Shown here in pieces: positions 30,769-31,536 of a stretch of DNA of 64,000 nucleotides. The translations under genes and the position numbers were made by a program. The stretch spans positions 8,863 to 72,862 of the forward strand of contig DATKXU010000060.1 in NCBI GenBank assembly GCA_035528905.1. The letters are read 5' to 3'. The notes under the pieces were generated by a model. That model worked only from the letters and a program-made list of their open reading frames with translations, did no database searches and was not told the origin of the DNA. Position 1 is the first letter of the stretch, and the number at the start of each line of letters is the position of its first letter. Source of the stretch: Armatimonadota bacterium (GTDB taxonomy: Bacteria; Armatimonadota; UBA5829; DTJY01).

Positions 30769-31536
30769 TTGCGGAACTCGTTACGCGACATCTGCATAGT
30801 TCTACGAAGCATCTGGCTGAACCTGGCGCTATACGCAGCTCTCATGCTGGCCGCAGCGGGGCTTATGTGCTTGTTCGGCTGCTACCGCGATACGACCTTC
30901 GCCGAGCGGCTGGTAAATGCATTCTATATGACCAGGATAGAGTCCGTGCCGGAGTCGGGACACAACACGCTGCGCTCGATCCTGGTTTTCGTAATGCCCA
31001 CGCTCACGATCCTCATCCTCGGCGAAGGCGTGCTGCGCGTGGCCGGGCTCTACATAAACAGGAAACGAGACAGAGGGGAATGGGAGAAGCTTATGGTTCA
31101 ATCGCTTTCAGGACACATTGTTCTGTGCGGAGCTGGAGAGCTGGGACGCGCCCTGCTGAACAGGCTTCGCGAGAAGTGCCAGGGGGTTCCCATCGTTGTG
31201 GTTGATATGCACCCGGACATACTCTCCGAGCTTGGCTTGAGATCGCGGCGTGTTCATAGCATATGCGGGGATATGACGAGCCACGAGACGCTGGTGGAAG
31301 CCAACGTTGCCGGGTGTTCCATGGTCATAATCACATCGGGAGACGACGCGCATAATCTGGAGGCGGCGTTTAAGGTGCTGGACATCAACCCGAAAGCGGA
31401 GATTCACATCCGTCTCTACCGCTCAGGCCTTTCCCGAATGATGAACACAGCGACCTATCCCAATATCCACTTCTTCAGCCCTTACGAAAGCGCGGCGGAT
31501 GCGCTGATGGAGGAGATTGGCACAGGGGTGAACTGA
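30769..31536 (+). CDS. 2-TM ion-channel-like protein with cytoplasmic RCK/TrkA-N nucleotide-binding domain
   Basis: 255 aa. Two N-terminal hydrophobic helices flanking a short re-entrant-like segment. Then IVLCGAGELGRAL...VVVDMHPD (Rossmann GxGxxG of the TrkA-N/RCK domain). No canonical TVGYG filter. Confidence 0.6.
   Translation: MRNSLRDICIVLRSIWLNLALYAALMLAAAGLMCLFGCYRDTTFAERLVNAFYMTRIESVPESGHNTLRSILVFVMPTLTILILGEGVLRVAGLYINRKRDRGEWEKLMVQSLSGHIVLCGAGELGRALLNRLREKCQGVPIVVVDMHPDILSELGLRSRRVHSICGDMTSHETLVEANVAGCSMVIITSGDDAHNLEAAFKVLDINPKAEIHIRLYRSGLSRMMNTATYPNIHFFSPYESAADALMEEIGTGVN

Follow-up and report, generated by a model that had tools for sequence, protein, structure and literature searches.

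Nucleotide-activated membrane effectors are found in CBASS, Pycsar, type III CRISPR and Thoeris systems, with Cap15, PycTM, Cam1, ThsF/ThsH and SLATT as examples, and KTN/RCK domains, whose GxGxxG…D signature binds adenosine ribose, classically make K+ flux dependent on NAD(H) or ATP/ADP state. Among the described systems closest to the locus analysed here, type X Thoeris combines the TIR protein ThsB with an ‘ion channel’ effector, ThsK, and is a validated defence system for which the signal molecule is unknown (10.64898/2025.12.03.692087). DUF4062, the domain of the Swarozyc system, is a TIR-like NADase that converts NAD+ into ADP-ribose (ADPR) and nicotinamide, leading to abortive infection (10.64898/2026.05.01.722283). 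In addition, phage RyR-domain proteins (RyDEP and RyR Tad) bind 2'cADPR, 3'cADPR and cyclic ADPR (cADPR), which one of them also hydrolyses, using an H-x-x-W pair along with other H, K and D residues (PMC13232231; 10.64898/2026.06.04.730250). Here, we focus on a gene at 30769..31536 (+ strand) within a 64,000-nucleotide stretch of DNA from an Armatimonadota bacterium (GenBank assembly GCA_035528905.1, contig DATKXU010000060.1, positions 8,863 to 72,862 of the forward strand), the whole of which we refer to as the window. The 255-aa protein that it encodes has a two-transmembrane (2TM) pore-loop-like fold followed by a single KTN/RCK N-lobe with an invariant nucleotide-binding motif, lacks a K+ selectivity filter, and is encoded in operon-like linkage with genes for TIR-like and RyR-domain proteins across several phyla. 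This protein, hereafter the RCK protein, probably belongs to an undescribed anti-phage system as a membrane component under nucleotide control, rather than being a housekeeping channel.

The RCK gene is real and conserved. Its open reading frame (ORF) starts with a TTG codon, with an AGAGGA Shine-Dalgarno-like motif lying 9-14 nt 5' of the start, and the protein has an identical entry in public databases, ‘NAD(P)-binding protein [Armatimonadota bacterium]’ (P0001). A protein search recovered ~75 full-length homologues (38-79% identity, 250-267 aa), and a scan of metagenomes raised the family to 89 unique sequences. When the family profile was used to search 1.8 billion representatives, a small and sharply separated family emerged, with a handful of 50%-identity clusters scoring above 190 bits; below 190 bits, the profile matches generic 2TM-RCK proteins, several of which likewise lack a TVGYG motif. 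A scan for promoters and terminators across window positions 20500-36500 gave background-level, uninformative results. We also considered an internal Met start that would yield a soluble RCK domain, as in MthK, and found this unconvincing, as a Met is present at position 108 in only 56/87 sequences.

The initial annotation of this stretch, made by reading the sequence without database searches, had described a 255-aa protein with two TM helices and an RCK/TrkA-N domain. This architecture is borne out by the ORF, by hydropathy, by the layout of a structural model and by a match of Pfam TrkA_N (PF02254) to residues 117-226 (E=1.9e-18; 67.3 bits against a cut-off of 23.8), which places the protein in the KTN/RCK family; the motif quoted in that annotation, IVLCGAGELGRAL…VVVD, is also present. 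The NCBIfam TrkA, Kch and KefC equivalogs scored only 15-31 bits, against cut-offs of 289-386 for the TrkA models. Structure prediction, which had been proposed as a check, was performed with AlphaFold 2 (AF2) using an alignment of 66 sequences, and yielded a model (pLDDT 85.3) with the order TM1, pore helix, loop, TM2 and Rossmann domain: helix 2-35 (TM1), a short helix at 44-54, a loop at 55-66, helix 67-100 (TM2), a linker helix, and a C-terminal six-stranded Rossmann domain that ends in helix 238-250. Kyte-Doolittle hydropathy identifies two hydrophobic segments, centred at ~17-30 and ~75-87, and basic residues that precede TM1 and follow TM2 are consistent with an N-in/C-in topology that places the RCK domain in the cytoplasm. 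In Foldseek searches of the PDB, the protein matched MthK over its full length (6oly_A, E=8e-11, 236 columns), with alignments to MthK chains spanning 236-252 columns, and gave a full-length match to GsuK (4gx2), an NAD/ADP-binding K+ channel, so that MthK and GsuK are its nearest structural relatives. In HMMER comparisons, residues 76-209 are collinear with residues 74-204 of MthK, from TM2 onward.

The membrane part has the TM1/pore helix/TM2 fold of pore-loop K+ channels of the KcsA/MthK type, as judged from AF2 and Foldseek. It begins with TM1 (~aa 14-37, 30808..30879), identified from hydropathy and AF2, in which W16 and N18 are conserved. This is followed by a pore-helix-like helix (aa 44-54) and a variable loop at the position of the filter (aa 55-66), which together occupy 30898..30966 and were delimited using AF2 and column frequencies, and by TM2, the inner helix (aa 67-100, 30967..31068), defined by conservation, AF2 and the HMMER alignment to MthK. 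Across an alignment of 87 sequences, the pore-helix-like segment carries a nearly invariant A-F-[H/Y]-M-A-x-L-E58, in which E58 is Glu in 76 sequences and Asp in 8. The inner helix carries the motif P77…I-L-G85-E86-G87-x-L-R90, where P77, I83-L84-G85-E86-G87 and R90 are nearly invariant (P77 and G87 in 87/87, G85 and E86 in 85/87, R90 in 84/87). The filter-position loop varies at positions 61-66 in both sequence and length, with indels, around a consensus of approximately E-x-G-[D/G]-G-x-x-P; the loop of the window protein reads SVPESGHNTLR in place of this consensus. As the initial annotation had claimed, there is no canonical K+ selectivity filter: a TVGYG-type sequence is found neither in the window protein nor in any other family member within the 87-sequence alignment, and the protein is therefore not a K+ channel in the strict sense. 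Pfam Ion_trans_2 did not match the protein either. Sequence-level homology of the TM part to K+-channel pores was considered and rejected on the basis of phmmer searches of the PDB and hhalign comparisons, and the relationship of the pore domains rests on the fold match, because profile homology is seen for the RCK part only.

The Rossmann domain (aa 116-250, 31114..31518) was recognised as a KTN/RCK N-lobe from the TrkA_N match, its invariant residues and a Foldseek superposition on the NAD-bound KTN domain Mja218 (1lss) with a target-normalised TM-score of 0.80. It has the six beta-alpha units of a Rossmann fold in the AF2 model, together with a GxGxxG motif and an acidic residue at the end of beta-2. 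In the family alignment all three glycines of G121-x-G123-x-x-G126 are present in 87/87 sequences and D146, at the end of beta-2, in 86/87; H116, D193 and N196 are likewise invariant within the N-lobe. Since the dinucleotide motif (H116…C-G121-x-G123-E-x-G126), D146 and D168-M-T are all essentially invariant across the 87 sequences, the nucleotide pocket appears to be under selection, and the KTN domain is predicted from its sequence to have an intact adenine-dinucleotide pocket. By contrast with the gating rings of MthK-type channels, there is no RCK C-lobe: Pfam found no TrkA_C domain, and in the AF2 model the protein ends after helix alpha-F (aa 250).

A few family members depart from this plan. 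One (P0201, 403 aa) carries tandem RCK domains, and a subclade (P0022, P0027 and P0028, the latter encoded at L030:6679-7902) consists of 2TM-RCK-NUDIX fusions in which the Nudix box is intact and the NUDIX domain apparently catalytic. The fusion gene at L030 adjoins genes for a RelA_SpoT-LSDAT_prok-RyR protein and an HSP70-like protein. A TRPM2-like reading of the fusion was considered and is weakened by the nature of the NUDIX domain, which is MutT/NudG-like and not of the NudF/NUDT9 type.

Since the initial annotation had proposed adjacency of homologues to STAND or TIR genes as a test of its reading, we analysed the genomic neighbourhoods of RCK genes across the family. Local hidden Markov models (HMMs) were derived from Pfam-delimited segments of the window and used to scan all ORFs of 117 fetched loci together with those of the window; unless stated otherwise, counts refer to genes no more than 3 kb from the RCK gene and are restricted to unique family members flanked by at least 3 kb on both sides (n=37). 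This analysis revealed a TIR-like gene (TIR_2 or DUF4062) at 25/37 loci, the arrangement expected of a Thoeris-like system with an adjacent TIR-domain gene, and a RyR gene at 23/37, with one or the other found at 30 loci and both at 18. Where at least 5 kb of flank was available on each side (n=26), the equivalent figures were 18 for TIR-like genes, 17 for RyR, 22 for either and 13 for both. Six homologues on long contigs with precomputed Pfam annotation (39-55% identity) all had TIR_2 and/or DUF4062-STAND neighbours, and all six had a RyR-domain protein nearby. The linkage to TIR-like and RyR genes spans Chloroflexota, Armatimonadota and an archaeal metagenome-assembled genome (MAG), at 38-50% identity.

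To survey the neighbourhoods without bias, Pfam was run on the products of the two closest genes to the left and to the right of the RCK gene at the 23 best-flanked loci (92 proteins), which gave TIR_2 (16), AAA_16 (10), DUF4062 (10) and RyR (9) as the top families, followed by WD40 and TPR repeats. The trk/ktr neighbourhoods that the initial annotation had named as grounds for abandoning its reading were not seen: no K+-transport family such as TrkH or KtrB was among the 25 families listed for these 92 proteins, and no TrkH/KtrB-type pairing was observed among the neighbours of the six long-contig homologues, which argues against membership of a Trk/Ktr system. In six loci with distant RCK or K+-channel-like outgroup proteins (L021-L026), none of TIR_2, DUF4062 or RyR was found among the neighbours. 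In a typical Chloroflexota locus (L008, L014, L017, L029, L031) the genes lie on one strand in the order RyR protein, an optional ~190-aa ORF, RCK gene, and TIR_2 or DUF4062 protein. Genes at RCK loci often abut or overlap, for example at L008, L017, L027 and L029, including overlaps of stop and start codons. At L057-L059, the RCK gene is flanked not by TIR or RyR genes, but by a phosphoribosyltransferase-domain gene and by genes for Pkinase-AAA_16-TPR STAND proteins (L057:8324-11986, L058:3339-6989, L059:4376-8047), the presence of which suggests that these too are conflict-system-type contexts; L001, which has little flanking sequence, has a phosphoribosyltransferase-domain neighbour only. 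Single cases of other neighbours comprise a caspase (Peptidase_C14) downstream of RyR and RCK genes (L011:3257-4120), a Cas3 adjoining the RCK gene (L005:10706-13441) and a P-type cation ATPase 2 kb upstream (L013:4921-7662).

The initial annotation had also placed the RCK gene between STAND NTPase paralogues in a TIR-rich locus, and Pfam supports both statements. Upstream lies a DUF4062 (TIR-like NADase domain)-STAND NTPase-TPR gene (27252..30746, +; DUF4062, AAA_16/NACHT, TPR_12), which ends 23 bp 5' of the RCK gene, and downstream a DUF4062-STAND NTPase-TPR gene of the NPHP3-like type (31592..35122, +; DUF4062, NACHT, TPR_NPHP3), which begins 56 bp 3' of it. The two are collinear paralogues (28% identity, E=1e-57), and the same nesting of an RCK gene between two DUF4062-STAND genes is seen in the nearest relative, L027. 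A third copy of the DUF4062-STAND-TPR paralogue is encoded at 17135..20842 (+). Two TIR_2 proteins lie within 24414-27143, one of 529 aa with a C-terminal TIR_2 domain (24414..26003, +; residues 394-516, E=5.5e-10) and one of 358 aa with an N-terminal TIR_2 domain (26067..27143, +; residues 6-110, E=5.1e-17).

The most constant neighbour of the RCK gene, at 23/37 well-flanked loci, had been overlooked in the initial annotation and encodes a protein that we refer to as the RyR-AAA partner. The window copy (21240..24059, +; 939 aa) was assigned from Pfam, profile searches, AF2 (pLDDT 86) and Foldseek a ribokinase/PfkB-like fold, an AAA+ core and a tandem RyR module of the Repeat12 (R12) type. 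Its N-terminal ~400 aa resemble HldA, ribokinase and nucleoside kinases in Foldseek (E ~1e-8 to 1e-6, the best being HldA/ribokinase at 1.7e-8), the AAA+ core (Pfam AAA, 484-560) has an invariant Walker A and a D-E Walker B, and Pfam RyR covers residues 834-891. PF02026 (RyR) was matched by 15/15 partners examined and AAA by 9, with 2 being RelA_SpoT-LSDAT_prok-RyR variants. A profile of the partner family matches the tandem Repeat12/Repeat34 domains of RyR1/2 at E ~1e-40, and also the domain of a Bacteroides ‘putative ryanodine receptor’. Within the RyR module, conservation is complete at H842 and at least 90% at W845, K910 and D911; the H842-x-x-W845 motif aligns to E-N-x-H-x-x-W of the RyR2 repeats, and the correspondence of partner residues to the ligand contacts of RyDEP/RyR Tad was made by motif and not by direct alignment. 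The partner therefore belongs to the RyR/R12 family and conserves the ligand-contact H-x-x-W and K-D residues. PADLOC has no model that matches it.

With at least 1,277 matches, the partner family greatly outnumbers the RCK family, and it occurs in Chloroflexota, Acidobacteriota, Syntrophomonadaceae, Armatimonadota and a Halobacteriota archaeon. Because partner genes occur with TIR or DUF4062 genes at loci that have no RCK gene, the RCK protein would be dispensable for the core system. It thus looks as if the RyR-AAA protein and a TIR-like NADase form the broader core of an undescribed system, to which the 2TM-RCK protein has been added as an accessory module in one sub-lineage. This qualifies the effector reading of the initial annotation: the RCK architecture, the loss of the filter and the TIR context that it described all hold, and the RCK protein would be an accessory module, not the core effector in every such system.

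A further ORF, of ~190 aa, recurs between the RyR and RCK genes, at 12 of the first 33 loci and at 38 loci in the enlarged set (for example L004:9405-9995, L031:9418-9993 and L019:9414-9992), and is absent from the window. Its motifs, GxTGHR…AEGADR…WDG…GPGGTG, are SLOG/LOG-like by eye; Pfam, NCBIfam and PDB profile searches returned no match, and hhalign against an LSDAT-containing partner and against a DprA-like protein of the window gave nothing. At L036, a 184-aa ORF likewise follows the RyR-AAA gene.

On balance, and with modest confidence, we favour a reading in which the RCK protein is a channel-fold accessory membrane effector, controlled by what its KTN domain senses, of a conflict system based on NAD+-derived nucleotides and built from TIR/DUF4062 and RyR-AAA proteins. 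Under this model, infection would trigger the STAND-TPR/WD40 sensors and TIR_2 proteins, which would consume NAD+ to produce ADPR and/or cADPR isomers. The resulting change in nucleotides, whether the loss of NAD+ or the appearance of ADPR-type products, would be sensed in the KTN pocket, in the partner's RyR module or in both places, so that the pore may be gated directly or through the partner. We infer that the protein would assemble as a conducting tetramer and that the ligand would act to open it; cations would then pass non-selectively, since there is no K+ filter and most members have conserved acidic residues (E58, E86) and a G-D-G-like loop. Depolarisation of the cell would in turn lead to growth arrest or aborted infection, giving a defence phenotype.

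Several observations weigh against this reading. The TM part alone gave no sequence match to the PDB with phmmer, and in hhalign profile-profile comparisons with true K+ channels only the RCK part aligns. A conducting pore is not assured, because the filter-position loop is variable and, in the window protein, SGHNTLR diverges from the consensus G-D-G-x-x-P. The partner is found beside TIR_2 (L035) or DUF4062-NACHT (L037) genes without any RCK gene, and at L036 beside the 184-aa ORF and an RNase H gene, again without one. About 5/37 well-flanked loci lie among housekeeping genes, including L002, L003 and L067; L007 also has such neighbours (aminotransferase and glycosyltransferase genes across these loci), and L019 retains the ~190-aa ORF only. 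A second effector is not obviously needed, because DUF4062 NADases kill by depleting NAD+ on their own. Finally, the NUDIX domain of the fusions is nearest to the MutT/NudG type (3grn, E=1.4e-22), and not to the ADPR-pyrophosphatase type.

In an alternative reading, the RCK protein would not conduct ions at all but would serve as a membrane-tethered sensor or scaffold, its degenerate pore domain acting as an anchor or oligomerisation platform while the KTN domain reports NAD+, NADH or ADPR to the partner or recruits it, leaving the partner or the NADases as the real effectors. The variable, indel-bearing filter loop fits this idea, as do the larger size and wider spread of the partner family and its pairing with TIR/DUF4062 genes where no RCK gene exists; the overlap of RyR stop and RCK start codons, which suggests a physical complex, also favours it. 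However, the near-invariance of P77, G85-E86-G87, R90 and E58 is more than would be required of a mere anchor, the MthK glycine hinge falls in the region to which G85 aligns, and the fold of the whole protein matches that of conducting channels, so that we regard a non-conducting scaffold as rather unlikely. A homeostatic or protective cation channel, which would sense NAD+/NADH or ATP/ADP during NAD+ depletion and limit self-damage or set an activation threshold without killing the cell, seems to us quite improbable. Although it would be in keeping with the classical tie between RCK domains and K+ flux, with the match to the NAD/ADP structures of GsuK, with the metabolic neighbours of some family members, and with fused NUDIX domains that could remove the nucleotide and so end the signal, the lost K+ filter speaks against a role in selective K+ homeostasis, and the genes occur patchily, on islands and with variable TIR/STAND partners, as is typical of defence modules and not of homeostasis genes.

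A third alternative, that chance alone has put an ordinary K+ channel or TrkA-like regulator with a housekeeping role into a defence island, is harder still to credit. Some homologues are annotated by their sources as ‘voltage-gated potassium channel Kch’ and a few loci do have housekeeping neighbours. This explanation is nevertheless largely refuted by the missing TVGYG, by the lack of any K+-transport family among the 25 neighbour families listed, and by synteny with TIR-like and RyR genes that extends over Chloroflexota, Armatimonadota and the archaeal MAG and is shared by 0/6 outgroup RCK loci. Returning to the accessory effector that we favour, a more specific version of it, in which the partner and the 2TM-RCK protein form a complex whose RyR (R12) module senses TIR-made cADPR or ADPR and gates a non-selective pore-loop cation channel, is an unlikely and speculative one. 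If true, such a complex would be a bacterial counterpart, and possibly an evolutionary source of parts, of the eukaryotic Ca2+ channels that respond to ADPR and cADPR. Other modules of the TRPM2 type occur in variant loci, with LSDAT/SLOG being present in the RelA-LSDAT-RyR partners and NUDIX as a fusion to the channel protein.

The locus forms part of a larger assembly of defence genes. Just after the downstream STAND gene lies a 105-aa DUF4062-only ORF (35225..35542, +; local HMM, Pfam DUF4062 E=8.9e-12), which may have arisen by truncation of a paralogue or may be an NADase-like domain in its own right. Two antisense ORFs (293 and 382 aa; 29576-30845, - strand) overlap the TPR-repeat region of the gene at 27252-30746, and are probably artefacts of GC-rich repeated coding sequence and not real genes. 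Downstream of the STAND cluster, 36197-42973 is a separate defence module in which a PLD(HKD)-SNF2 helicase (PADLOC ‘HKD+Snf2’, E=4e-50) directly precedes a type IIG restriction-modification enzyme (PADLOC E=0). At 43010-44643, genes for an IrrE-like Peptidase_M78 protein and a DUF4411 protein share 4 bp and form a toxin-antitoxin-like or defence-associated pair. Further cargo includes the small DprA-like (DNA_processg_A) protein at 45449-46084 and an Mrr_N-domain protein at 47845-48432. The ends are marked by a recombinase Zn-ribbon fragment (15880-16869) on one side and by a DUF3854+AAA_25 protein (50700-52487) and a large serine recombinase (53161-54861) on the other, beyond which, on both sides, lie housekeeping genes (thioredoxin, radical SAM, HtrA-like protease). 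Taken as a whole, the region from 16 to 55 kb looks like an integrated, recombinase-bounded defence island of 38 kb.

The main interest of these loci is that prokaryotes repeatedly bring together an ion-channel scaffold, a RyR domain and TIR-like enzymes that cleave NAD+. If our reading is correct, they would represent a new system of three to four genes (a TIR-like NADase, a ribokinase-AAA+-RyR protein, a 2TM-RCK protein and sometimes the ~190-aa protein) and a new effector class of signalling-based anti-phage immunity, in which a classical RCK channel scaffold has been repurposed from K+ homeostasis to immunity. They would also give the binding of cADPR by RyR domains, so far known only in phage anti-defence proteins, a host-side role near an ion channel, and would make the long-debated link between cADPR and channels of the ryanodine-receptor type testable in a simple bacterial system. 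In the literature searched, we found no link between RCK/TrkA domains and phage defence and no host RyR-AAA proteins beside TIR genes, with an earlier mention of either being possible in the 2015 SLOG/LSDAT paper (Burroughs et al., NAR); related Aravind-group literature that we searched made no mention of RyR, TrkA or ion channels.

Comparison with known proteins and systems helps to define what is distinctive here. The RCK protein resembles MthK and GsuK in its full-length fold and in the order of its elements (TM1, pore helix, loop, TM2, linker, RCK Rossmann domain), and shares the dinucleotide-type GxGxxG…D pocket with GsuK and KTN proteins. It differs from MthK and GsuK in having no TVGYG filter, an RCK N-lobe only and a conserved acidic E86 in the inner helix, and its gene lies amongst TIR, STAND and RyR genes and not in a context of ion homeostasis. 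Because it lacks a C-lobe/TrkA_C domain, the canonical octameric gating ring would need some other arrangement. With Cap15, PycTM, Cam1, ThsF/ThsH and SLATT it has in common a cytoplasmic nucleotide-binding domain joined to TM helices, in proteins that disrupt the membrane on receipt of a signal. To our knowledge, none of these uses a K+-channel pore-loop fold or an RCK/KTN sensor, and no described membrane effector of a signalling system has the two together or has a host RyR-domain ATPase as its partner. None of the PADLOC models matches the RCK protein, including those of the membrane effectors of CBASS, Pycsar, type III CRISPR and Thoeris.

The genes that flank the RCK gene carry the same N-terminal DUF4062 as Swarozyc, a single-protein system with a different C-terminal auxiliary domain and no mention of a channel partner (10.64898/2026.05.01.722283), whereas at the locus described here DUF4062 is fused to a STAND NTPase and TPR repeats (NPHP3-like) and is accompanied by RyR-AAA and RCK genes. 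Similarly, the C-terminal module of the partner falls in the same PF02026 family as RyDEP/RyR Tad and retains H-x-x-W and K-D, yet these phage proteins are small anti-defence sponges or glycosidases, while the RyR module of the partner is host-encoded, tandem, fused to ribokinase-like and AAA+ domains and located in a TIR-rich locus, for which reasons a role as sensor or regulator is more likely. To compare the RCK protein with the effector of type X Thoeris, ThsK was located through the Bacillus TIR given in Table S1 of the type X Thoeris preprint, as the 229-aa neighbour at L034:3298-3987. Membership of a common family was rejected, as ThsK is all-membrane, has no RCK domain and no Pfam match, and aligns to the RCK family with an hhalign probability of 0.2%; across the validated Thoeris effectors (ThsA-ThsL), hhalign against ThsK and PADLOC revealed no homologue of the RCK protein. 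The TIR of type X Thoeris is ThsB_TIR (PF08937), in place of the TIR_2 and DUF4062-STAND proteins found here, and no RyR-AAA partner accompanies type X Thoeris. Nevertheless, in bringing together a TIR-domain gene and an adjoining gene for a predicted ion-channel protein, type X Thoeris is the nearest functional analogue of the system described here.

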